Below the pieces are notes generated by a model. It had not been told where the DNA came from, did no database searches, and worked only from the letters and a program-made list of their open reading frames with translations. The position numbers and the translations under genes are program-made. From an uncultured virus (IMG/VR IMGVR_UViG_3300038825_001395) (Duplodnaviria > Heunggongvirae > Uroviricota > Caudoviricetes), in the IMG/VR virus record IMGVR_UViG_3300038825_001395: a stretch of DNA of 64,000 nucleotides. The stretch is one strand, 5' to 3'. Positions 6,809 to 49,969 of this stretch are shown piece by piece. Position 1 is the stretch's first letter; each line of letters opens with the position of its first letter.

Positions 6809-7768
6809 TCACGAAAGTAATTTTAAATCATTATCAACCATTTTACCCACCATCTCCTCAAAAGATGTTTTCGGTGACCACCCCAACTCATACTTTGCTT
6901 TTGTTGAATCACCTCTTAATACATCCACCTCAGCAGGTCTTATGAATTTTGAATCTTGTTTTACATATTTACCCCAATCCTTTTCACCGACATGTTGAAA
7001 GGCGATATCTAAAAACTCACCTATAGTGTGGTCAACACCAGTAGCTATAACATAATCAGATGGCCTGTCTTGTTGTAACATCAACCACATTGACTCCACA
7101 TAATCAGGAGAATAACCCCAATCTCGTTTAGAATCTAAGTTCCCCAAACTTATATAATCCTCTATTCCTAATTTAATACGAGCCACACCATCAGTTATTT
7201 TACGAGTTACAAACTCAATACCTCGTCTCTCTGACTCATGGTTAAATAAAATACCACTTACATTAAACATATCATAAGACTCTCTGTAGTTTTTAGTAAT
7301 CCAATGTCCATATAATTTAGCAACCCCATAAGGTGAACGAGGATAAAAAGGCGTAGTTTCTTTTGCTGGATTTTCAACCATACGACCAAACATTTCAGAT
7401 GTTGATGCTTGGTAAAACTTAATCTCTTTACCATATTCTCTTATAGCTTCCAACATTCTTAAAGCACCAAGACCTGTTACATCACCTGTTTGTTCTGGTG
7501 TATTCCAACTCTCACCAACAAATGATTGAGCAGCCAAATGGTATATCTCATCCGGATCACATTCTTTTATACACCTAAACAAAGAGTTTTGGTCTGTTAA
7601 ATCACCATTTAAAAATGTTATTTTTCCCTCTAAGTGTGAGGTGTTTAATCGATTAGGGTAAGAGGTTCGTCTCTCCATACCGAATACCGTGTAACCTTTC
7701 TCTAATAAGAAATCAGCAAGATGGCTACCGTCCATGCCATTAATACCTGTTATTAATGCTGTATTCAT
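6809..7768 (-). CDS. gmd: GDP-mannose 4,6-dehydratase
   Basis: ALITGINGMDGSHL, LAAQSFV, YPRSPYGVAK, LFNHES, FVTRKIT, RPAEVDVL. Confidence 0.95.
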   Translation of the reverse strand: MNTALITGINGMDGSHLADFLLEKGYTVFGMERRTSYPNRLNTSHLEGKITFLNGDLTDQNSLFRCIKECDPDEIYHLAAQSFVGESWNTPEQTGDVTGLGALRMLEAIREYGKEIKFYQASTSEMFGRMVENPAKETTPFYPRSPYGVAKLYGHWITKNYRESYDMFNVSGILFNHESERRGIEFVTRKITDGVARIKLGIEDYISLGNLDSKRDWGYSPDYVESMWLMLQQDRPSDYVIATGVDHTIGEFLDIAFQHVGEKDWGKYVKQDSKFIRPAEVDVLRGDSTKAKYELGWSPKTSFEEMVGKMVDNDLKLLS

Positions 7769-8811
7769 TTTTTCTCCATTATATTTTTAAAATCTTCATA
7801 TGTATTAAATCTATTTTGTGATTTTCCAAATGTTGATAAATTTACATTAGCCAAATGTTTCAAATTCTCATACCAACCACCTCGTTGGTTTGGTCCTTTT
7901 TCTTGTGTACATATTCTATCACCTTCCATTTGTAAACAATATCTTCTTTTCTTTGGGTGATTTCTATTATGAACTTTCAAAATATTTTTTATAACAAATT
8001 GAACATAGGCATCTCCCATTATTTGTTTACAACTACTCATCATACTAGTATCATCAACCGCATGACCTAAAATACATCTTGGAACATTCACACCATTTTT
8101 TAACAAATCCGAACTCAACACCAAAATAGATCCATCAAATTGAGGTTGTTTTAAAACTCGAACATCCAATTCATCACATCTTTCATTTATCTCATTCATC
8201 TCATCAATAGACATTGAGTATCTAATACTATGTGGTTCTGTAAATGCCTTTTCATTTCTTGTACCATCTGGTAACTCAGTTTCGTAATATTGTTTATCAG
8301 TAAATTCGTTATGCTCTAAAACCTTCCAAGAATCATCCCACATTTTTCTTAATGCAAATGTAACTACATATCTGTATATGTTATTTTGATTAGCATACTC
8401 TTTCAATGAATCTAGTGTACCAAATGTCTCTTTTGGTAACAATGCATCTGACTCACCCCATATTACATAATCATTATCTACACAACCATAATAGTTTAAG
8501 TCTCTTCTATAATCTACCATTGTAATAGGATTGTCATTATCTTCATATATTTTATATGTAACATTACAACCAGTAGACTCAACTGACTTTACTAATTTTA
8601 AAAACTTTTCTATCAAATCACCCTTTGATATTTCTTCTCTATTTATTTTTTCAAAAAACTCAGAAATATTATAGAATAAATCTATCGTAATATTATCTTT
8701 ATTTTCAACCGTATTAACAGCATTAATCAAACTTTGTATATGTTCTTTAACCATATCAATTTCATAGAACATGATATGCGTTCCAATTATATATTTATTA
8801 TGTACTTTCAT
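7765..8811 (-). CDS. Putative glycosyltransferase (GT-A-like)
   Basis: VIWGESDAL DxD-like motif; island context. Confidence 0.5.
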   Translation of the reverse strand: MKVHNKYIIGTHIMFYEIDMVKEHIQSLINAVNTVENKDNITIDLFYNISEFFEKINREEISKGDLIEKFLKLVKSVESTGCNVTYKIYEDNDNPITMVDYRRDLNYYGCVDNDYVIWGESDALLPKETFGTLDSLKEYANQNNIYRYVVTFALRKMWDDSWKVLEHNEFTDKQYYETELPDGTRNEKAFTEPHSIRYSMSIDEMNEINERCDELDVRVLKQPQFDGSILVLSSDLLKNGVNVPRCILGHAVDDTSMMSSCKQIMGDAYVQFVIKNILKVHNRNHPKKRRYCLQMEGDRICTQEKGPNQRGGWYENLKHLANVNLSTFGKSQNRFNTYEDFKNIMEKK

Positions 8812-9434
8812 ATTTTTTTACAGAGTATCCCTTCCCATGTTTCATCTAAATCTTTATTTTTTACAGGTTTTTTTTCATAAAATTCCATTTCTTCCCCAAG
8901 ATATGATATAAATTCTAATTTTCCATCTTTTATAAATTTGTGAACTGCTCGTCTAACACCAAAGTTATCTTCGCTAAGTGTATAATCATCAAACACAAAA
9001 TAACCTCCCATCTTTACATACTTTAAACCATTTGTTATATCAGAGCAACATTCTTCATATCTATGAACACAATCGATAAATATAGCATCTAATTCCGGAA
9101 AGTTCCACTCCGTAGCATAAGCATCTAACGGAATAAACTTAACATTATCTCTATCCTTTAAATAGGTATATGGCGTGTCTCCTATTTTTCCCATTATTCT
9201 AGTGTCGAAATTATTTGGATGTTCGATAAATAAAATATTTTTAAACAAATAACTTAAAATTCTAGTCGTATGACCACCCCAACCAGAAACTTCAGCTATC
9301 GTATTTAAATTTTTATCTATAAAAAAATCTATCAAATCCGATTTAAACTTACTTGTAGTTGTAGCATATGCATCTCTTTTATCTTTAGTATTTTTCATTA
9401 TTTCTTCTTTAGTAATTATCATTTTATTTTCCAT
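8808..9434 (-). CDS. Class I SAM-dependent methyltransferase
   Basis: AIFIDCVHRYE, GGYFVFDDY. Confidence 0.75.
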   Translation of the reverse strand: MENKMIITKEEIMKNTKDKRDAYATTTSKFKSDLIDFFIDKNLNTIAEVSGWGGHTTRILSYLFKNILFIEHPNNFDTRIMGKIGDTPYTYLKDRDNVKFIPLDAYATEWNFPELDAIFIDCVHRYEECCSDITNGLKYVKMGGYFVFDDYTLSEDNFGVRRAVHKFIKDGKLEFISYLGEEMEFYEKKPVKNKDLDETWEGILCKKI

Positions 9435-10170
9435 ATAAGTAATTATAAGTTGCTTCCATCCACGCTCTGGGATGTGGTTTTACACCACAGTTAAAATGAT
9501 ATACCCATCCATATTTAGTATGCAACATATCATTTCCCAAGACTTCAAATCTATTCATATCTTGCATATTAAATTCATATGGTAATATCTTTAAATCAAT
9601 ATTATGTTTTTTTAGTAAAAAATTCATCGGTGTTTGATCTGTCCCATTAAATAATTTATTTTGTATTTGTAATAAATTGTCTTTATTATTTAAATAAAAT
9701 TCAATAACAGATTTCAAAAACTCTTTATGTTTTTTATTAAAAATTTGAAAACCACCATTTATATACTCATAGTATGGAAACATTTTATTATCAAAAAAAT
9801 AATGACTATAGTTTTCCATGCTCCTTATAACCCAATCCATACTACCATAGTTATGAACACCAGCGTATTTATGTTCTGTGAGTTCAAAGAAGTTTGGACA
9901 GTTTGGGTGAACTAATGTATCCGCATCTACCATTAAAACTTGGTCATAATCAACACCATCATTTTCTAACATCTCTAAGGCATGATATCTTTGCCAAGTT
10001 ATTTTCATTTCATCATAGTCATAAATTAAATCTTCCATTACAACTAATTTACAATCGTTTATATCACACCAATGTTTCCAACTTTTTACTGATAAGTCGT
10101 ATGCAACTTCAAGTAAACGTTTTTTATCCGTTCCTTTAACTTTTGGTATGAATACTATATTTTTTTTCAT
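9424..10170 (-). CDS. GT-A (GT8-like) glycosyltransferase
   Basis: LMVDADT, YINGG, GTDQTPMN, HFN. Confidence 0.75.
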   Translation of the reverse strand: MKKNIVFIPKVKGTDKKRLLEVAYDLSVKSWKHWCDINDCKLVVMEDLIYDYDEMKITWQRYHALEMLENDGVDYDQVLMVDADTLVHPNCPNFFELTEHKYAGVHNYGSMDWVIRSMENYSHYFFDNKMFPYYEYINGGFQIFNKKHKEFLKSVIEFYLNNKDNLLQIQNKLFNGTDQTPMNFLLKKHNIDLKILPYEFNMQDMNRFEVLGNDMLHTKYGWVYHFNCGVKPHPRAWMEATYNYLYGK

Positions 10171-41355: not shown

Positions 41356-43890
41356 TTAAAAAAACCTTTCAATTGAGTTATTTTTATCAACCGGCATATC
41401 CCAAGACATAGCGTCATAAAACATCTGTATCTTCTTCTTTAGGGCTTTATCAAATAACTTGTCTCTATCTACATACTGATTGATAAAATCTATGATTTGT
41501 TTAGGATCATCATAACCTTTGTAAGCAAGTCCATCTATTTTAAGTGGATTTTCTTTTAGATAAACCCAGCGAACTTTATTACCATTTGATATTGCTTCAT
41601 GTTTGTTTACCTTAAAGTATCTCAATAAGTCATTGTAAATAACCGAAGCTTTGGTATGAACAGGAGCACCCTTTTCCATCTCGGTAAATATACTTTTACT
41701 ATTAGCACCAAATCCACTTCTAGTTTTTTTCTTGGTGTATTTTTGGATACCCTTTACACCGGTTGGAAGAGCAATCTTATCCAACTCTTCATTTTTTAGA
41801 TTATTCTTAAAGTCAAGGATAAACTCATCTATTCTTTCCTTTGGAACTTTAGCAAGAATAGCTTTTAAAACCTTAGTCATAAAGTCACGGAATGCTGGTG
41901 GAAATGAACTACGGACAATATCTAAACCTTTAACATCAAGTTTTTCACAAGGTGTCCCACCATCATTAATAATCCATTGGCCATATCTTTTCTTGGTAAC
42001 CCAAAAAGCAGCCTTAGCAATCATCTCTTGTTTAATCTCAAACCGATGGTCACCTTGTATATTTAAGAACTTACTACTGAAATAGTTATAAGATTTATTG
42101 ATGTAAGATTGAACCTCATCGGCAATATCCAATATCTGTTCTGTCATAAACTTTTCATCTTTAACATCAGCATTTGGAAATCTGTTTTTAACAAGTGGAA
42201 GAGCAGAATAGAAAACCGAGTCTGTATCTGTGTAGATACAATAATCTTTATCCGTTTTTAAGATTTTATTATAATAACTATTTGTAACCTTTTCGGTAAA
42301 CTGAATAAGTTTCTGACCTGTGGTGGTTGTCCCTTCAGCGTTATCAATATCATAAAATCTAAATACGGTTAAGCCCAATACTCCGTACAAACTATTAAGT
42401 AAAATCTTTTGTACCAGCTGCCTTCTGTTGAAGTAACCATGTAATTCTTGGTCACCTTCGGTTTCGTACTTCTTTGCTAGTTTTCTATACTCTACTCTCT
42501 CATTAAACCATTTCTCAAGTATCGCCGGTATAACACCTTTCTTACTTAGGTCATACAAGACTCCATTTGATGAAATGGATATTTGATTTTTCCCAAAGAA
42601 ATCTTTGAGTTCCCCACTTGTAAAGGTTCTGATAACTTTCTTATCCTTCTCCACAGAATAATGTTTATCTTCACCTCTAATAAATTCTTCAGCATCCCAA
42701 CCGTTTATCTTACCTATCTTTGTCTCAGGCGACATATTCAGAGACATAATAATACTTGGATACATAGAAGTTAAATCTAAATCAAACACCCAATCATAAC
42801 AACCAGGAACGGGTGATTTCACATAAGCACCACTAAACCTACCTTCTGAACCATCATAACTAGCAGTAGGTAATTTACTTGGAGCAACTAAACCTAAACT
42901 ACGAAGATAAACTAACATAGCACCTTCAATATATCTTGAACTAAAATATACCTCTTCATAAGGTATTCTACCCAAGTGAGATACAGCACGAGCCAAGTCT
43001 AACAACTTGAACTTTTGGTCAAGTGCTTTAACTATCTCAACATCATTTAAGTTATATTCAATAAACTTATCAATATCATCTCTGTATAAATCATCAAGTG
43101 TTCCTTCATACTCAACCTTACCTATACCAACTTCAATAGTTCCGATATGGTCTAATCTATAACTTGATTGCTGGGTGTATGTAAACTTTCTATATAAATC
43201 CATATAATCTAATGAACTTACACCAGCAATACGATACATCTTTTTGTTTGGGTTATACTTTACGATTTGTATTGGTGAAAGGGCGTTAGCAAACTCCTCA
43301 CCTAAAACTTTTGTTATTCGGTTATATAGATAAGGAATATCAAAACCATTTGTATTCCAACCTGTAACACAAGTTGGTTGGACATCTATCCAATACTTTA
43401 AAAACTCTTGTAATAATTGACTTTCGGTTGTGTAGAAGCGAATATCAACACCATCTTTAATATTATCTTGACCTTCACCTAAAACATATACACGATATTT
43501 CTCATCATGTTTGGTATACATAGCAACCGAAGTAACTTTGTTTGCTGCTTTGGATGGTTCAGGAAAACCATCTGTAACCTCTACCTCAATATCAAAGAAT
43601 AGTTCTCGGTGGTCTTTTGACGGTTCATCAGAATCTTCATATCTATCTAAAAGAATACGAGTATCTAATGGAATATCCGACTCAAATACTCTACCAGTTC
43701 TGAAATCTTCTTCTGTCCAATATGTAACTTTCTTTAACTTATCTCCGTAGATAGAGCGGTATTGACCACTTCCATCACGAACATAAGCATAATTCTTAAA
43801 TATAAAGTTTTGATAACCAGCAACATCATCCCAAAGATGAACTTCTACTTGATTACCACCTCTTTTCTCACACCAAATATTCTGATAAAT
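41356..43890 (-). CDS. Family B DNA polymerase (gp43-like), 844 aa, probable ATT start
   Basis: Frame is open 123 codons upstream of the tracked ATG and includes ExoI FFDIEV; also GWNTNGFD, DLTSMYPS, KILLNSLYG, YTDTDS, KKRY; clamp-binding-like tail SIERFF. Confidence 0.92.
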   Translation of the reverse strand: MYQNIWCEKRGGNQVEVHLWDDVAGYQNFIFKNYAYVRDGSGQYRSIYGDKLKKVTYWTEEDFRTGRVFESDIPLDTRILLDRYEDSDEPSKDHRELFFDIEVEVTDGFPEPSKAANKVTSVAMYTKHDEKYRVYVLGEGQDNIKDGVDIRFYTTESQLLQEFLKYWIDVQPTCVTGWNTNGFDIPYLYNRITKVLGEEFANALSPIQIVKYNPNKKMYRIAGVSSLDYMDLYRKFTYTQQSSYRLDHIGTIEVGIGKVEYEGTLDDLYRDDIDKFIEYNLNDVEIVKALDQKFKLLDLARAVSHLGRIPYEEVYFSSRYIEGAMLVYLRSLGLVAPSKLPTASYDGSEGRFSGAYVKSPVPGCYDWVFDLDLTSMYPSIIMSLNMSPETKIGKINGWDAEEFIRGEDKHYSVEKDKKVIRTFTSGELKDFFGKNQISISSNGVLYDLSKKGVIPAILEKWFNERVEYRKLAKKYETEGDQELHGYFNRRQLVQKILLNSLYGVLGLTVFRFYDIDNAEGTTTTGQKLIQFTEKVTNSYYNKILKTDKDYCIYTDTDSVFYSALPLVKNRFPNADVKDEKFMTEQILDIADEVQSYINKSYNYFSSKFLNIQGDHRFEIKQEMIAKAAFWVTKKRYGQWIINDGGTPCEKLDVKGLDIVRSSFPPAFRDFMTKVLKAILAKVPKERIDEFILDFKNNLKNEELDKIALPTGVKGIQKYTKKKTRSGFGANSKSIFTEMEKGAPVHTKASVIYNDLLRYFKVNKHEAISNGNKVRWVYLKENPLKIDGLAYKGYDDPKQIIDFINQYVDRDKLFDKALKKKIQMFYDAMSWDMPVDKNNSIERFF

Positions 43891-43917
43891 AACTAACCTC
43901 TACATTTTCAATACTTT

Positions 43918-43956
43918 AATATACACAAAAAACCCTATACAAGTCAAGGGTTTTTT
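43918..43956 (-). promoter_or_regulatory. Promoter TTGACT-18-TATATT within a 10-bp inverted repeat
   Basis: Arms AAAAAACCCT 43927-43936 and AGGGTTTTTT 43947-43956. Confidence 0.7.
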
Positions 43957-43960
43957 TGAT

Positions 43961-43986
43961 AAAAGGGGCGAAATTAATCGCCCCCT
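43961..43986 (-). terminator. Intrinsic terminator after the TonB-dependent receptor
   Basis: GGGGCGA-TTAATT-TCGCCCC-TTTT. Confidence 0.85.
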
Positions 43987-43998
43987 AGTTTTATCATT

Positions 43999-46728
43999 TT
44001 AGAAATTGACAGATAGTCCTAAGTTAAAGTTTCTTGGTGTTCCAAGAAATACTTCAGCATTATGAGCAGCGTGAACTTTGTCACCATACCCATTATATTG
44101 ACTATTATCAACAGCGTCTTGAACATATACTTCGTCAAGAACATTAAATAAATGACCACTAATGGTCATATCCAAACCAGCAATCTCTGGTAGTTTGTAA
44201 GATAGATGTAAGTCTAACTTGCCGTAGGATGGAGTTTTCCATACTTGAGCTCTGTCAGCATCACCACTAACCTCACGAGAATCAGGACTCCAATCAGCGT
44301 AGTGATTGTCGTACCATCTGTAAAGACCTTGTACATTTAGACCTTTGATTGGCTTTAATGTTAATCCACCGACATATGCTGTCTGTGGCATATCACCAAC
44401 TTTTAAGTCTTTAAGAGCATATTCATACTCTGTTGTAGTTTGACCTATTACTTGTCCATCATCATTATATTCCATCTCCTGATAATCACCTTTAGCATCT
44501 CCACCAAAATACCAATTACCAGTACTGATAGCAACATCTAATGATACCATTTCGTGAAGAGCAACTTTGGTTTCAATTTCAACACCACTATGGCTTTGAT
44601 TTACACCAGTTAGATAAATGATGTCTGTGTCACCTGAGTCACCTTGACCTGTATTTACAGATTTGGTTAGGTTTCTATCTTTCCATTGAGTGTTGTAGTA
44701 ACTACCTTTGATAGCAACTAACTCACTCTTATATTCTCCACCGATTTCGTTGGAAATGAACTTCTCATTGTCTGGATTCTGTGAAACAGTTCCGTCATAA
44801 GCAATTACATTATCCAAAATTGGTGGTTTCTCAACATAGCCAATGTTAGCAAATGCTGAAAGTCTATCATCAAGATTGAATCTACCACCACCTTTTACTT
44901 GGAAAGTAGTAATAGCATCAGCCTCAACAACTTCTTTATCAACTGAGAAATGGTCTTGATAGGTATATCCAATAGTGGATACTCCACCCATACCATATAA
45001 GTTGAACTTAGCGATGTCGTATTTACCTTGTATAAAAGCACCAAACCAATCAACTGTGGTTTCATTGTGGTAAGCGATAATATCACCCAAACCAACTACT
45101 TTACCATCAGCAGCATTGTCATCAGCGTAATCTACATAGTAGTCTCCACCAAGTAAGTCACGAACTTCTCTAGCGTGTTCAATACCAGCAGTTCTCCAAT
45201 CAATACCGACTTGAACTTCCAAGTCATCACTAACTTCATAGTTTAACTTTGAAATTAAACCAAGTGTGTTTTGTCTATTGATTGAGTTTCTTAGAATACC
45301 AGTTGAACGGTTTTCGGTTTCAGAGAAAGAAGAATCTACATTAGCAGAGTTCTGTGCAATCTCAGCATTCCAATCCCATATCCAAGGTGAACTTGCATAC
45401 CATCTTTCACCTTCAATAGCAGGAGCTCTTGAAACACTACCATAAGTACCAGTTCCACCACCTGAACCACCACTCCAATAAGCAACGGAACTTAGTCTAA
45501 CTTGTTCATTTACATCATAGAAATGATTTAAGTTAACTAACGGTTTGTGAAAAAAGTTCTCTCTTTCATTTAAGAAATCAGAACCAAACCTATCCTGTGT
45601 TTTATCACCATACATATAAAAGTATTGTTTACCTTTATAAGAAGGATCAACAGGAGCCCAATTCTGATTGTAGAACCTACCAGCTTCAGTTTCAAACTTC
45701 TCACCAGCTACATAAGCAGAATCATTATACCCGTCAATACTTCCAGCTAACTCTTGTGAGTAGGTAGCAATATTTTGTTTGTATAAGTTCTGTCCGTGTC
45801 TTTGGGGAGCGCCGATACCATATAGTTCGACTCTCTGTTTGTCACTTATGGCGTAACTAGCACCAGCATAATAAGCCCAAGCATCTGTCCAAGTTCCATC
45901 TATAAGACCATCACCAGTTTTACGAACAATAGTTCCACTAAGTGCTAGTTTATCAGCGATTAAACCTGAGTTATAGTTTAAAGTAGTTTTTAGAAAACCA
46001 CCAGCTCCAGCTTCTTGTTTAAACTTACCACCTTTCTCCTGAGCAGCAGGATCGGTAATAATGTTCATAGTTCCACCAATAGATGGTGTAGCAAGATTTA
46101 CAGCTGATAGACCTCGTTGCATCTGAATGGAAGAAGTAGCATCACCTACCCCATCCCAATTAGACCAATAAACCCATCCGTTCTCCATATCGTTTTGGGG
46201 AACACCGTTTATCATAACTGCCACATTTCGTTGGTTGAAACCTCTTACATTGATACGAGCATCACCCGCACCACCACCTTGTTGAGTAGCATATACACTT
46301 GGTGTAGTGTTCAGAATCATTGGAATATCTTGACTACCAAGACGAACTTCCATCTCTTCTTTAACTATTGTAGTGTAAGCCACAGGTGTTGTTTCATCAG
46401 CCCTAGAAGCAAGAACTTCTAATGCTGACATTGATACTGCATCAACTTTAAGATTAAAGTCAGCAACAGCATCACCCTCTCCAACAACTACAGATATAGT
46501 TTCTGAAGAGTATCCAATAAAAGAAGCAGTAACATCGTATGTCCCAGCAGGTACATCTTTGATAAGATAACTACCTTCGCCGTTTGAAACTGAACCAAGT
46601 TCTGTTCCTACTACAACGACATTTGCTCCTTGAAGTGGTTTTTCACTACTTACAACTCCTGAAATAGATTGAGCAAACAATCCTGTCATCATCACAAGTA
46701 GTGTTATTAGATTACGTTTATTTCTCAT
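43999..46728 (-). CDS. TonB-dependent outer-membrane receptor with N-terminal carboxypeptidase-regulatory-like domain
   Basis: Signal peptide, ISGVV...PLQGANV, plug INVRGF...INGVP, beta-barrel pattern, C-terminal Phe (LGLSVNF). Confidence 0.93.
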   Translation of the reverse strand: MRNKRNLITLLVMMTGLFAQSISGVVSSEKPLQGANVVVVGTELGSVSNGEGSYLIKDVPAGTYDVTASFIGYSSETISVVVGEGDAVADFNLKVDAVSMSALEVLASRADETTPVAYTTIVKEEMEVRLGSQDIPMILNTTPSVYATQQGGGAGDARINVRGFNQRNVAVMINGVPQNDMENGWVYWSNWDGVGDATSSIQMQRGLSAVNLATPSIGGTMNIITDPAAQEKGGKFKQEAGAGGFLKTTLNYNSGLIADKLALSGTIVRKTGDGLIDGTWTDAWAYYAGASYAISDKQRVELYGIGAPQRHGQNLYKQNIATYSQELAGSIDGYNDSAYVAGEKFETEAGRFYNQNWAPVDPSYKGKQYFYMYGDKTQDRFGSDFLNERENFFHKPLVNLNHFYDVNEQVRLSSVAYWSGGSGGGTGTYGSVSRAPAIEGERWYASSPWIWDWNAEIAQNSANVDSSFSETENRSTGILRNSINRQNTLGLISKLNYEVSDDLEVQVGIDWRTAGIEHAREVRDLLGGDYYVDYADDNAADGKVVGLGDIIAYHNETTVDWFGAFIQGKYDIAKFNLYGMGGVSTIGYTYQDHFSVDKEVVEADAITTFQVKGGGRFNLDDRLSAFANIGYVEKPPILDNVIAYDGTVSQNPDNEKFISNEIGGEYKSELVAIKGSYYNTQWKDRNLTKSVNTGQGDSGDTDIIYLTGVNQSHSGVEIETKVALHEMVSLDVAISTGNWYFGGDAKGDYQEMEYNDDGQVIGQTTTEYEYALKDLKVGDMPQTAYVGGLTLKPIKGLNVQGLYRWYDNHYADWSPDSREVSGDADRAQVWKTPSYGKLDLHLSYKLPEIAGLDMTISGHLFNVLDEVYVQDAVDNSQYNGYGDKVHAAHNAEVFLGTPRNFNLGLSVNF

Positions 46729-46756
46729 AAAACGATCTCCATGTTATTGTTGTTAA

Positions 46757-46796
46757 GACACATTTTTTATCAGGTGTGTCGTCTGCCTGTCCGCAT
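46757..46796 (-). promoter_or_regulatory. Candidate H-type pseudoknot / leader mini-ORF (MRTGRRHT*)
   Basis: CAGG/CCTG and GACACA/TGTGTC interlocking stems with an ATAAAAAA linker. Confidence 0.4.
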
Positions 46797-48809
46797 TTAA
46801 TTTGCATAGTCTTGGTCATCATTATCACCAGTCATCGGTACAATCTCACACGAATCATTGTTACAGAAAACATCTACTTCTGCTTCTTCATTTTTTATTA
46901 CCCCAAAAGATAACTTACCTAATTTTTTAACTTCGGCATTATATGTATCCTCTTCAATAGCTTCATATGGCATTTGTTGATAAGCACCATAATCATGTCT
47001 CGGTAATAAACTAATACCCTTTAAGTGGTATTGATAATAATTTAGAGCAGGAGCAATTTGGTCTGCTTCTGTCTCTGGATTAAAAGTAACTGTACAACTA
47101 ACTTGGTTATCAGCCCAATGTCTTTGTAAGAAAGCAGCTAAACTAAATTGTTCCCAAATTGAAAGTTCAGCTGCTGTTCTTATCCCCTCACCGACATCTA
47201 CAGGAACTTCAACAACCATTGTTGTGTCCTCTGAACCAAAAGCTGGTTCTAATTTATACCCAGCTTTTTCTAACGGTTGCAATAGTTCTGAATGTTTTGA
47301 TAATCTAATTCTTCTAATGTAAAATCTTGATTCAGGATAGTGAAGTCCTGGTGTAGCACCAGCAAGTAAAGATACAGTTCCACTTGGTTTAACCGAAGTA
47401 GTTTTTATTGAATTAGGAACAGCAAACCAATCTGAATATTGATTGTCCCATTCTTGTATTGTATTGTATCCACCCTCTAACCATCTCTTAAACTCATCTA
47501 AACCTCTATTAGTAACAAACTGAGCAACACCACTTACACTACATCCGATTCTTCTATTTCTTAACATAACTCGGTTGGTTTCAGACCAATGTGTTCTTCC
47601 CAATGTTACTGTTTTAGCATACAGATAAGCATATTTTAAAGTTCTTTGATAATCTTCTAATGAATCGTGGTTTGCTGGAAATGTTTCTACTAAACAACAT
47701 AACTCATATGATTCTAGTGATTGTTCTAAACAAGGATTACCACCCATAACTCTATGGTCTTTGTTATCTCCACCATTCTTCATACGAGAGTATTTTCTCA
47801 TATTGTCTAACCACGCAAATCCAGGCTCACCATTATCCACAATTCGTTTGGCAGCTTCTGTATAATCCATACCCAATTCAGCGAATATACTATTATTAGA
47901 TGTCCATCCATATGTCTCCCTATGTGGGTTAACTTTATAATTTTTTAAATCCAAGTATTCTTCATCATGTGGATCTCCAAATACAATTTCTGCCGTTCTT
48001 CTTACATTACCAGCAACAACACATTTACCAATTAGGTTCATTATGTCTACTATGGTAGTGATAGTAATTGGCTCTCCACTATTTTTTTCTAATACTTTCT
48101 TTATATCATCATGAACTTCTAAAAGTGGTTCATGCCCACTTGATACCCCACCAAAACCATTTATTGGTTCACCAGCTGCTCTAATTTTATTATAATCAAA
48201 CTTGATGGAAGCAGTTCCGTGAAAATAACTTTCTAACAGAACTTTTAATGACTCAACCCAACCTTCTCTTGTGTCTGGTATTTCAAAGATAGATTCATCA
48301 CGACCTTTGTCTACACCCTTTACAATAATCTCACCAGCACCTTTTGTATCAAATCCTACACCCACTCCTAACATACTAGCATCCATAAGGAAACAGAAAG
48401 GTTTAGCGTAATCATCTTTTATTGTTTTGGTTGATACAAAAGCACAGTTATTAAGGGCGGCGTATAAGCCTCTTTCTTCGGTTATGGCTGTTCCCATAGC
48501 CCAAAGTCCACGACCAGGTGGCAAGAACTTCATATTGAAGATACGCTCATACATCTCTTGTGCTGACTTTTGAGCTTGCCACGGATTCCACCCTAATTGA
48601 TGTGAATCAATGTGATTTTTTTGCATAGAGTAAGTTCCCTCTACAACTCTTTGAACGGTTTCCCACCATCGTTCATTTTTTCCATCCTCTTTTATTCTTG
48701 AATAGGTTCTCATATAAACCAATTCACCTAGACCATTAAAACCAAATGGCGCCTTTTTTCTTTTATATTTTGCTATAAAATTTTCCGATAATACAAACTT
48801 CTTACTCAT
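46797..48809 (-). CDS. nrdJ: Class II adenosylcobalamin-dependent ribonucleotide reductase (monomeric RTPR type)
   Basis: PPGRGLW, LNNC, GNVRRTAE, NPCLEQ...CCLVE, VKPSGTVS, C-terminal CNNDSC. Confidence 0.93.
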   Translation of the reverse strand: MSKKFVLSENFIAKYKRKKAPFGFNGLGELVYMRTYSRIKEDGKNERWWETVQRVVEGTYSMQKNHIDSHQLGWNPWQAQKSAQEMYERIFNMKFLPPGRGLWAMGTAITEERGLYAALNNCAFVSTKTIKDDYAKPFCFLMDASMLGVGVGFDTKGAGEIIVKGVDKGRDESIFEIPDTREGWVESLKVLLESYFHGTASIKFDYNKIRAAGEPINGFGGVSSGHEPLLEVHDDIKKVLEKNSGEPITITTIVDIMNLIGKCVVAGNVRRTAEIVFGDPHDEEYLDLKNYKVNPHRETYGWTSNNSIFAELGMDYTEAAKRIVDNGEPGFAWLDNMRKYSRMKNGGDNKDHRVMGGNPCLEQSLESYELCCLVETFPANHDSLEDYQRTLKYAYLYAKTVTLGRTHWSETNRVMLRNRRIGCSVSGVAQFVTNRGLDEFKRWLEGGYNTIQEWDNQYSDWFAVPNSIKTTSVKPSGTVSLLAGATPGLHYPESRFYIRRIRLSKHSELLQPLEKAGYKLEPAFGSEDTTMVVEVPVDVGEGIRTAAELSIWEQFSLAAFLQRHWADNQVSCTVTFNPETEADQIAPALNYYQYHLKGISLLPRHDYGAYQQMPYEAIEEDTYNAEVKKLGKLSFGVIKNEEAEVDVFCNNDSCEIVPMTGDNDDQDYAN

Positions 48810-48895: not shown

Positions 48896-49969
48896 TCATT
48901 TTTTAAAACAAAATATCGGTTCATACTTGTATCCAGCACCCATTATACTTGATAAAGTTAGTTCTATTGTCTGCTCTTGTTTAAACCCTAATTCAGTTGC
49001 AATTCTGATGGTTTCTTCTTCTATAAACTTGTATTTTGGTGTGTTTGCTATGTTAATTAACATATATTTATTACCTTTTAGTCCGTTATAGCAGTTTTCA
49101 ATTGTTTTGTATAAAAATCCATTTATCCATTCTTCCTTTGTTGGGTATTTCTTAAAACTTTGAGTTTCTTCATCACTATATTTTTCCGTGTCAAAATAAG
49201 GTGGTGAAGTAAAACACAAATCCAAAGAATTAGCATCTGGTCTAAATTCTTCACTACCTAATTTATGTAATTCTACTGACTTTGTCAAGTAATTAAAATC
49301 TTTTTTTATCTTTTTTAATCCTTCAAAGGTTAAACTTGATGGTTCTGTTCCAATATACTTTGGTCTTGAACTTGCCAGAAAACCTATAAGTCTTCCACCC
49401 CATCCACATGACATATCCCAAATAGCATCACCACCAAACTTTTCATATATCATTTTAGCAGCAGTTGGTCGGAAGTTACTTACTGCTTGTGTACCTGTAT
49501 AGATTTTTAGGGATTGTCTAAACCTATTTTCTCTAAATCTGTTTTTATCAATACCCTCTTCTCCAGCAAATTGAGTAGAACACCATCTCCAACATTTTTT
49601 GATAACAGCTTTAAGTTTATCATCATCCATAAATGTATCCATCGGTGTTCTTGGAGCATTACCACATTGTATATCAACCCAATGTGGAAAATAAGTCCAA
49701 GCTAATCTCAATCCATGCATAGTTTGATTTATTTTATTATCATTAAAAATAGTATCAGTATCAAACCTTTGTAGTTTTCTCATCATACTATGTTTTTCAT
49801 CTTCTCTAACCTGATAATGTGGAAAACCTTTCTTTCTCCAATAGTTAAAAATAACTTCTATTCCATATTCAGGATCATGTCCTCTTAAATCAGAAGTTAC
49901 TTTTTCATATTCTACTTCATCTTTATCAAAACCAAAAACATCCGTTAATATAGTAGGATTATTATTCAC
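48896..49969 (-). CDS. Amino (N4-C/N6-A) DNA methyltransferase
   Basis: WDMSCGWGGR SAM motif, FTSPPY catalytic motif. Confidence 0.88.
   Translation of the reverse strand: MNNNPTILTDVFGFDKDEVEYEKVTSDLRGHDPEYGIEVIFNYWRKKGFPHYQVREDEKHSMMRKLQRFDTDTIFNDNKINQTMHGLRLAWTYFPHWVDIQCGNAPRTPMDTFMDDDKLKAVIKKCWRWCSTQFAGEEGIDKNRFRENRFRQSLKIYTGTQAVSNFRPTAAKMIYEKFGGDAIWDMSCGWGGRLIGFLASSRPKYIGTEPSSLTFEGLKKIKKDFNYLTKSVELHKLGSEEFRPDANSLDLCFTSPPYFDTEKYSDEETQSFKKYPTKEEWINGFLYKTIENCYNGLKGNKYMLINIANTPKYKFIEEETIRIATELGFKQEQTIELTLSSIMGAGYKYEPIFCFKK

Follow-up and report, generated by a model that had tools for sequence, protein, structure and literature searches.

A Marinimicrobia-related TonB-dependent transporter gene in a variable cargo slot beside the class II ribonucleotide reductase gene of marine T4-like phages

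Why should a tailed phage encode an outer-membrane receptor directly behind a ribonucleotide reductase (RNR) that depends on vitamin B12? The question is raised by a 64,000-nucleotide stretch of an uncultured virus of the Caudoviricetes (IMG/VR record IMGVR_UViG_3300038825_001395; the whole stretch is referred to below as the window), in which the gene for a 670-amino-acid (aa) class II monomeric-type ribonucleoside-triphosphate reductase (RTPR; 46797..48809, minus strand) is followed by that of a 909-aa TonB-dependent transporter (TBDR, here the receptor; 43999..46728, minus strand), the latter assigned with Pfam, AlphaFold2 and Foldseek. A sequence-only reading of the window had placed this pair in a replication cluster, with 68 nucleotides (nt) between the two genes and a terminator only 3' of the receptor, and all of these features were borne out, the gap (46729-46796, minus strand) being exactly 68 nt long. 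The same reading supposed that the phage installs its own importer to supply its reductase with cobalamin. The analysis presented here favors a different answer, namely that the receptor gene is probably a host-derived accessory cassette of the auxiliary metabolic gene type, an extra copy of a host importer, not one for B12, that is carried in a cargo slot.

The receptor and its cellular relatives

By sequence family and predicted fold, the receptor is a member of the TonB-dependent transporter superfamily. Pfam assigns a CarboxypepD_reg domain to residues 21-102 and a Plug domain (PF07715) to residues 112-220 (50 bits against a cut-off of 23.9), and no Pfam barrel model matched the protein. 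The AlphaFold2 model, computed from an 80-row alignment (pLDDT 87.8, pTM 0.83), predicts an N-terminal beta-sandwich, a flexible linker (residues 96-103), the plug and a 22-strand barrel, and a reading by eye adds a putative Sec-type signal peptide (MRNKRNLITLLVMMTGLFAQ/S), a TonB-box-like ..SALEVLAS.. and a C-terminal ..LSVNF with its terminal phenylalanine. In Foldseek comparisons the model matches solved TonB-dependent transporters at E 1e-43 to 1e-34 (of at least 500 counted matches, 458 have E <= 0.001), with Fiu (E 1.5e-43), PqqU, YncD, FhuA and FecA (E 1e-43 to 1e-38) among them and BtuB ranking 38th (E 4.7e-35); as TonB-dependent transporters all score alike in such a search, the fold gives no clue to the substrate. 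A phmmer search of PDB sequences gave no match at E <= 0.01, and a profile search of the same sequences reached the SusC homologue 8aa4 (E 9e-23) and RagA 6sli (E 7e-13), both over the N-terminal part, and BtuB through the plug only (E 1e-7), behind 29 other chains. In NCBIfam neither the BtuB (TIGR01779 / NF007926) nor the SusC (TIGR04056) family matched at E <= 0.01, and the ESM Atlas returned generic names only, with clusters in Fidelibacterota and Uroviricota. The receptor thus shares the superfamily fold with BtuB (TIGR01779 / PRK10641; PDB 1NQE; TM score 0.82 normalised to BtuB); unlike BtuB, it is ~300 aa longer, carries an N-terminal extension domain, and has neither a family-level match nor a cobalamin riboswitch. 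With SusC/RagA of Bacteroidota it has in common a CarboxypepD_reg-like extension before the TonB-box region; unlike these transporters, it lacks the TIGR04056 match, and no SusD-like partner was found beside the phage gene or the host orthologues examined.

Relatives of the receptor are encoded on 358 viral stretches among the IMG/VR contigs. The 77 viral loci that were kept are 71-100% identical to the window receptor and lie on contigs of up to 165 kb; five of them begin within the receptor gene, and in all of the 72 loci that are thereby informative for the upstream neighbor RTPR is found immediately upstream on the same strand, so that the adjacency of the two genes is not due to chance. 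Of 8000 matches scored in a large protein collection, 6161 have E <= 0.001; the top 120 are 83-95% identical and come from contigs of at most 192 kb. Among deposited phage genomes, 13 records match the receptor, with 29% as the best identity and with megaphages matching via the plug only, and a megablast search of the RTPR-receptor pair against deposited phages gave no match.

Cellular relatives were sought in one genome per prokaryotic species, which gave 118, of which 80 were kept; among the titles of these 80 records, 56 give Marinimicrobia, Neomarinimicrobiota or Fidelibacterota as the group and 17 give none. Two of the loci (L079 and L080) are phage contigs binned into metagenome-assembled genomes (MAGs), as they carry RTPR together with phage replication genes (that for the family B DNA polymerase, PolB, in L079, and those for DnaB and an exonuclease in L080). 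The remaining 78 have a receptor without RTPR, at 51-72% identity, and the nearest cellular relatives, 51-68% identical over their full length, constitute one orthologue group of Marinimicrobia (SAR406), an abundant uncultured ocean phylum for which, to our knowledge, almost no viruses have been described. An orthologue at E <= 1e-100 was present in 61 of 121 sampled genomes of this phylum, mostly as a single copy. These orthologues are uncharacterised proteins of ~910-990 aa that have the same order of domains (CarboxypepD_reg, Plug, barrel) and the same length as the phage receptor, with a nearly identical plug, a conserved TonB-box region and conserved loops, and their genes are preceded by a strong AAGGAG-type ribosome-binding site, as in the phage. 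Unlike them, the phage copies form a separate clade, are headed by an RNA pseudoknot (see below), and lie between RTPR and PolB and not behind the gene for an SRAP peptidase.

In a FastTree phylogeny of 114 rows the phage copies fall into one clade (39 phage rows together with the MAG contig L081) with a Shimodaira-Hasegawa (SH)-like support of 100, and the 12 phage rows in an IQ-TREE phylogeny of 42 rows do likewise (SH-aLRT 100); in both trees this clade is nested among Marinimicrobia cell rows. Since the cellular kin of the receptor fall mostly in Marinimicrobia, SAR406 is the likely host phylum. The genes found next to the host orthologues are of the housekeeping type, among them those for the SRAP peptidase, a DnaE2-like polymerase, DnaG, RecO and a rhomboid protease, and no transport partner gene was seen beside the orthologues examined. 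In several Marinimicrobia genomes the orthologue is located directly behind the SRAP gene (L103:7148-7840, L138:7151-7843, L148:4066-7774), which in L148 follows the gene for the DnaE2-like polymerase; the SRAP-receptor synteny is conserved and has no obvious link to transport.

Substitution rates were estimated by the Nei-Gojobori method (NG86) against 16 relatives, the higher dS values being near saturation. The receptor has dN 0.04-0.20, dS 0.24-1.34 and dN/dS 0.10-0.17, and no disrupted copy was found among the full-length receptor genes; it is under purifying selection. For RTPR the corresponding ranges are 0.06-0.13, 0.61-1.94 and 0.06-0.10, and for PolB, in loci with a 46-56% identical PolB, dN is 0.36-0.50 and dS 1.6-2.7, the RTPR-receptor pair being much more conserved than its neighbors. 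The idea that the phage installs an importer therefore survives in part: the importer is intact, with a predicted signal peptide, plug and 22-strand barrel, and is kept by selection, and what lacks support is its assignment to cobalamin supply. Two mosaic loci point to exchange between lineages. In L002 the dS of the TBDR is 0.24 vs 2.70 for PolB, and in L070 the DnaB (91%), exonuclease, UvsX and RTPR (92%) proteins are ~86-92% identical to those of the window, with the TBDR at 80% and PolB at 53%.

The conservation of different receptor regions was compared over 39 phage and 62 cell rows. The plug is the most constant (conservation 0.95 in phages and 0.91 in cells, the same consensus residue at 91% of positions, no fixed differences), and the values for the linker and TonB-box region are 0.88 and 0.83. 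Extracellular loops (0.86 and 0.71; same consensus 70%; four fixed differences) and barrel strands (0.87 and 0.79; 71%; four) resemble each other closely, and only 12 of the 909 receptor positions differ in a fixed manner between phages and cells. So few fixed differences, together with a host-like plug and host-like loops, fit an unchanged transport function and argue against a surface-altered decoy or exclusion variant. Superinfection exclusion or receptor replacement, which had been offered as the other possible use of the receptor, is accordingly disfavored, since the extracellular loops equal the barrel strands both in conservation and in likeness to the host.

The reductase, the cargo slot and cobalamin

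The reductase scores 370.9 bits against the NCBIfam equivalog TIGR02505 (cut-off 340.05), matches the RNR_Alpha and RNR-II_ins_dom families of Pfam, and belongs to PHROG 367 (E 2.7e-137); by this family assignment it is taken to be adenosylcobalamin-dependent. Its relatives are encoded on 446 viral stretches of IMG/VR. A search based on RTPR gave 76 new loci, of which 51 have the receptor, 10 do not and 15 end too soon, leaving 61 that are informative. In the comparison of nrdJ-receptor synteny across phages, which had been suggested as a check, RTPR precedes the receptor wherever the latter is present with upstream DNA, and in 10 of the 61 informative RTPR loci the receptor is missing. RTPR, present in the 72 receptor loci and also where the receptor is lacking, is a core gene of the phage group.

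The ten receptor-less variants are of four kinds. In five empty sites (L182, L186, L200, L211 and L246) the RTPR stop is followed immediately by a promoter-like element and PolB, with neither pseudoknot nor terminator, and L200 is otherwise close to the window phage (PolB 87%, DnaB 91%). One locus (L203) has a deletion scar: RTPR, up to ..GDNDDQ, is fused in a different frame to what is left of the receptor gene, its last 11 codons, with the terminator behind them. In three loci (L229, L230 and L234) the leader RNA and the opening codons of the receptor gene are retained ahead of an unrelated 483-aa open reading frame (ORF), and one locus (L199) has a glutamine synthetase gene in place of the receptor. 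Besides glutamine synthetase, cargo of the slot includes thymidylate synthase with a PNKP-type phosphatase, dUTPase-like proteins, an SLT transglycosylase, an N6/N4 DNA methylase, an AAA_28 protein and several ORFs without a family, and extra genes of this kind, located after RTPR or the receptor and before PolB, were noted in L013, L019, L030, L034, L039, L048, L055, L199 and L229. Given these ten variants and the diversity of the inserts, the RTPR-PolB junction is a hypervariable cargo slot, with the receptor as accessory cargo. A receptor that lands in such a slot beside a core RTPR gene would be universally adjacent to it, and the adjacency therefore does not speak for a shared function. 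The downstream border of the slot is formed by PolB (41356..43890, minus strand; assigned by Pfam), in front of which lies a promoter-like site, TTGACT-18-TATATT (43918..43947, minus strand; 10 of 12 consensus matches). Matches to the promoter consensus are at the chance level in the window (51 found, 49.4 expected), and the same element is found directly after the RTPR stop in the cassette-less loci L182, L200, L211 and L246. The nearest deposited PolB is that of the Microcystis phage Mel-JY01 (46%), in which the order PolB, hypothetical protein and clamp loader is kept and neither RTPR nor the receptor is found beside PolB.

The receptor has the properties expected of a phage auxiliary metabolic gene, as its closest relatives are cellular genes of the presumed host group, the phage copies group in one clade, 51 loci are with and 10 without it, and its dN/dS is low throughout. 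The substrate is very probably not cobalamin. An Rfam scan found no cobalamin riboswitch (RF00174) in the window. In the host-phylum sample of 121 genomes, 94 have a cobalamin riboswitch and 50 have both a riboswitch and the receptor orthologue, and in none of these 50 do the two adjoin; in three of them they are on one contig, at least 128 kb apart. Rfam scans of 11 host loci gave only tRNAs near the orthologue (11 of 11). Four of five host genomes examined contain exactly one cobalamin riboswitch each, and in all four it directly precedes a different, BtuB-like receptor of 681-693 aa, for which the best NCBIfam family is TonB-B12 (TIGR01779), below the cut-off; for the only one compared pairwise (L167), the identity with the phage receptor is 21%, in the N-terminal part only. 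The remaining genome, G006, has neither a riboswitch nor an RNR barrel match and may be incomplete. The reductase of the hosts themselves is the B12-dependent NrdJ (NrdJ_Z, TIGR02504, 537-542 bits), and RTPR was not found in the five host genomes with the phage RTPR as query; as the host NrdJ is itself B12-dependent, an infected cell would already run on adenosylcobalamin. The supposed supply of cobalamin to the RNR is thus left with no BtuB match, no riboswitch link, and RTPR relatives that do without the receptor.

The pseudoknot leader and the transcript

The phage RTPR-receptor spacers (64-90 nt, 46 distinct sequences) have in common a layout of pseudoknot, linker, (A)GGAG and ATG. In the window, a predicted H-type RNA pseudoknot (46757..46790, minus strand), derived from an alignment of 45 spacers, pairs ACAGG (46790-46786) with CCTGA (46774-46770) in its first stem (S1) and GACACA (46780-46775) with TGTGTC (46762-46757) in its second (S2), the first loop having 5 nt and the second, A-rich one 7 nt. 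It is followed by an A/C-rich linker (46729..46756, minus strand) containing a Shine-Dalgarno-like GGAG (46740-46737) 8 nt before the receptor ATG. In the alignment used for covariation, from which the L059 spacer was left out, 97.7% of the cells are paired and five of the 11 pairs have changed on both sides; none of 500 shuffles reached the observed pairing, and controls in which the stems were slid were 18-58% paired. All 74 phage loci with DNA upstream of the receptor have the motif, which the window contains once and which is missing from all 90 cellular or other loci. As it is missing from the five empty sites and is kept in the remnants of the L229 type, it belongs to the cassette.

No known RNA family accounts for this structure, since Rfam 15 gave no match to it in the window at the gathering cut-off, and at E <= 10 the region 46650-46850 returned only two chance-level matches, to a snoRNA and a lncRNA model. 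A nested fold of the spacer is not distinctive (z -1.53) in a method that cannot represent pseudoknots, and no similar pseudoknot was seen by eye in the leader of the gene for the single-stranded DNA-binding protein (SSB) of the window. Since the knot may begin anywhere between ~6 and ~45 nt after the RTPR stop, a role as a readthrough or frameshift signal of RTPR was ruled out. Judging from their arrangement, the pseudoknot, linker and ribosome-binding site probably tune the translation or stability of the receptor mRNA, with translation control, stability and ligand sensing as possible roles of the knot itself. The translational operator of the T4 gene 32 mRNA has a 5' pseudoknot from which an unstructured A/U-rich segment leads to the ribosome-binding site, and the receptor leader may be compared with it in layout only (H-type knot, A-rich linker, ribosome-binding site). 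A more far-reaching proposal, for which the chances seem small, is that the pseudoknot represents a new class of phage cis-regulatory RNAs that gate the synthesis of a stolen host importer, either as a ligand-sensing riboswitch that reports on the cargo or as an operator to which a phage protein, for example the gp32-like SSB, binds. In that case the cassette would amount to a self-regulating module by which SAR406 phages pirate nutrients, and its RNA would offer a handle on the transporter substrate; with an SSB operator, synthesis of the importer would be coupled to how far DNA replication has proceeded.

Ahead of the pseudoknot, 11 of the 46 distinct spacers (L025, L034, L037, L038, L050, L056, L061, L069, L072, L073 and L074) have a further short motif, (T)TCACATAC, and the spacers of L014 and L016 carry TTACACAA instead. 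The motif is not present in the 68-nt spacer of the window itself, and a similar motif is found ~60-100 nt upstream of some host orthologues (L101, L103, L082); it may be a remnant of a host promoter or leader.

At the other end of the cassette, ~15 nt past the receptor stop, there is a putative intrinsic terminator hairpin (43965..43984, minus strand), GGGGCGA-TTAATT-TCGCCCC followed by TTTTATC. Six of its seven pairs are G-C, and it is the sole G+C-rich hairpin with a T-run, none being found in the 68-nt gap; the six other terminator-like matches have three G-C pairs each, and the total of seven is not above that in shuffled sequences (4.2, sd 2.2). A similar hairpin is kept beside the deletion scar of L203. 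Both genes are covered by contigs from four metatranscriptome runs of three studies (30, 30, 16 and 26 of 30 bins), and two of these contigs bridge the spacer (X15 record 4, 46514-46833, and X16 record 13, 46316-47384), a weak hint of co-transcription of RTPR and the receptor.

Competing explanations and the setting of the locus

In the explanation preferred here, an ancestor of this marine T4-like phage group would have captured, probably once to judge from the trees, a stand-alone ~930-aa Marinimicrobia gene for a TonB-dependent transporter. The phage gene has gained the phage-specific pseudoknot leader and is closed by a terminator of its own, and the unit lies in the variable slot that extends from the RTPR stop to the PolB promoter. 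During infection, the receptor would be transcribed with or just after the replication genes and, as is usual in its transporter family, would be exported via Sec, inserted into the outer membrane by the beta-barrel assembly machinery (BAM) of the host, and energised by the host TonB-ExbBD through the conserved TonB-box region. As its plug and outer loops stay host-like, it would provide additional capacity for importing whatever the host orthologue imports.

An adenosylcobalamin-dependent reductase by family, a receptor gene directly behind it in all informative receptor loci with no terminator in between, and the unusual conservation of both genes would also be expected if the receptor imported cobalamin or another corrinoid, so that the phage RTPR had enough adenosylcobalamin during the replication burst. 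TonB-dependent transporters can moreover be promiscuous, and gut Bacteroides carry several BtuB paralogues. Enhanced B12 uptake by RTPR virioplankton has been put forward as a speculation (PMC10547690), and in the part of the preprint at hand SAR406 is mentioned only in an association analysis. The PDB profile that reaches BtuB through the plug only and the missing BtuB family match nevertheless make this cofactor supply distinctly improbable, as do the host genomes, in which the orthologue is never beside the cobalamin riboswitch, none of the 11 loci scanned has an Rfam element upstream of it, and the riboswitch fronts another receptor; and the receptor is dispensable for a sixth or so of the RTPR relatives (10 of 61), while an RTPR-like gene is found in 1225 deposited phage records and any receptor-like match in only 13, all below 30% identity. 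It is unlikely, too, that the host orthologue serves as adsorption receptor and the phage copy as a decoy or replacement, that is, a variant that keeps transport and blocks or misleads other phages. Phages classically use TonB-dependent transporters as receptors, the fold matches include FhuA with T5 pb5 and with the exclusion lipoprotein Llp, and the phage copies are a distinct clade with 51-68% identity to the cell copies; the loops, however, are not specially diverged, sharing the consensus about as often as the strands, only four of the 12 fixed differences fall in them, no exclusion-type lipoprotein is found beside the receptor gene, and more copies of its own receptor on a lysing cell would presumably trap the progeny of the phage.

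The cassette might also hitch-hike without benefit, the slot being a recombination hot spot in which it spreads like a selfish insert. The many unrelated inserts, the exchange between divergent phages seen in L002 and L070, and the relatives that lack the cassette would all agree with this; we consider it very unlikely, as low dN/dS has been maintained over dS values of up to 1.3 with full-length copies undisrupted and a plug 95% conserved, 358 viral stretches carry the receptor, and the cassette has a dedicated, covarying RNA leader. Hardly to be expected, finally, is a role other than uptake, such as the outward transport of a phage or host product or a remodelling of the outer membrane together with the phage glycan cluster described below. 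Outward transport has been reported for the Oar-type transporter of Myxococcus, an N-terminal CarboxypepD_reg domain is common to Oar-like and SusC-like transporters, and the ~35-kb sugar-nucleotide/glycosyltransferase cluster lies in the same window; there is, however, no evidence that links the receptor to that cluster, the host orthologue is a stand-alone gene in 61 of the 121 sampled genomes, and the plug and TonB-box region are kept as in importers.

Several results weigh against the explanation preferred here. By an approximately unbiased (AU) test, a tree that groups the 26 sampled cell rows into a single clade is not rejected (p 0.194), and the phage clade is therefore placed only 'inside or sister to' the Marinimicrobia group. 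Within the phage clade falls L081, a 4.3-kb Marinimicrobia MAG contig with tandem receptor genes, which could be a donor-like lineage, a transfer back from a phage or a misbinned phage piece. The proposed host is named from gene kinship alone, and neither the fold matches nor the host gene context points to a ligand. RTPR adjoins the receptor in 72 of the 72 loci in which the receptor exists with upstream DNA, and RTPR is 77-92% and the TBDR 71-94% identical, as against 46-57% for PolB in most loci; with such universal adjacency and shared high conservation, position alone leaves room for a functional link. The RNA-library evidence, moreover, consists of assembled contigs, which may stem from DNA carry-over and which do not give strand, ends or level.

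Two of the MAG contigs deserve separate mention. In L081 (986-4265) the two tandem receptor genes lie behind a DegT-type aminotransferase gene on the opposite strand, and it is the first copy that falls within the phage clade. L083 is a 40.9-kb contig with a receptor relative (7592-9712) that in its best segment is 72% identical over residues 10-399, and no relative of RTPR, DnaB or PolB was found within the 17.7 kb examined; it may be a broken copy or a receptor relative in a different context.

Host-derived auxiliary genes in phages are of a known kind, and the RNA leader is new. A full-text literature search, which did not cover supplements, turned up no description of the receptor cassette. 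The closest precedent is the 'TonB-dependent receptor (SusC)' of the marine megaphage Mar_Mega_1 (LR745206), which likewise is phage-encoded and was annotated as an auxiliary gene that boosts uptake (PMC9723777). Megaphage records are among the 13 deposited records that match the receptor, in alignments confined to the plug (18-24% of the query, 27-29% identity); they are a different lineage, with genomes of ~0.6-0.7 Mb vs contigs of up to 165 kb for the T4-like phages, and no pseudoknot leader, slot or host orthologue is described in the available part of PMC9723777. The first Marinimicrobia viruses were reported in PMC4611503, which in the part at hand mentions neither TonB nor a reductase. 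The cassette thus provides a link by gene kinship between a large and widespread group of T4-like phages (358 receptor and 446 reductase stretches) and SAR406, and it suggests that a complete TonB-dependent importer of the outer membrane can be carried by phages and maintained by purifying selection over long periods, which would broaden 'nutrient piracy', with its periplasmic binding proteins and inner-membrane functions, to include the outer membrane. It also illustrates that a cargo slot can create an adjacency that is perfectly conserved and yet non-functional, the tempting B12-supply reading for a B12-dependent reductase being unsupported. The main interest of the locus lies in the virus-host biology of SAR406 and in the phage-specific pseudoknot leader, a compact and well-supported new RNA motif.

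All genes in the window are on the minus strand. The RTPR-receptor pair is surrounded by a T4-like replication module with UvsX, a gp32-like SSB, a DnaB-like helicase, a 5'-3' exonuclease, PolB and a clamp loader, and a head protease and a baseplate gene are also encoded in the window. The G+C content is 0.37-0.38 over the pair (44001-48000) vs ~0.28-0.35 elsewhere in the window. A cluster for sugar-nucleotide and glycan synthesis of ~35 kb (~2100-35930, minus strand) is unusually large for a phage and includes six nucleotide-sugar epimerase/dehydratase-like ORFs, two aminotransferases, two glycosyltransferases, a radical SAM protein, methyltransferases and a FabG-like reductase. The lowest positions of the window hold a peptide deformylase-like ORF (75-713) and an HNH endonuclease ORF (933-1481), both on the minus strand.

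The true N-terminus of PolB is ~123 codons upstream of the listed ATG (43521), so as to include the ExoI motif FFDIEVEV. In the start region (43888-43905) there is an ATT codon (43890..43888), and IYQNIW stands behind an in-frame ATG-TAG, at a position where homologues begin MYQNI... with ATG. Isoleucine is found at this position also in L002-L004, L055 and L069, and leucine in L020, L026, L023, L051, L034, L070, L071 and L074, which suggests that PolB uses a recurrent non-ATG start, possibly of regulatory significance.

Between DnaB and RTPR the window has a 357-aa ORF with a weak DNA-methylase match (48896-49969, minus strand). It is present at this site in only a subset of the loci (L001, L021, L026, L038, L052, L054, L057 and L070); in other relatives DnaB adjoins RTPR, and the DnaB-RTPR junction is therefore a second variable insertion site.

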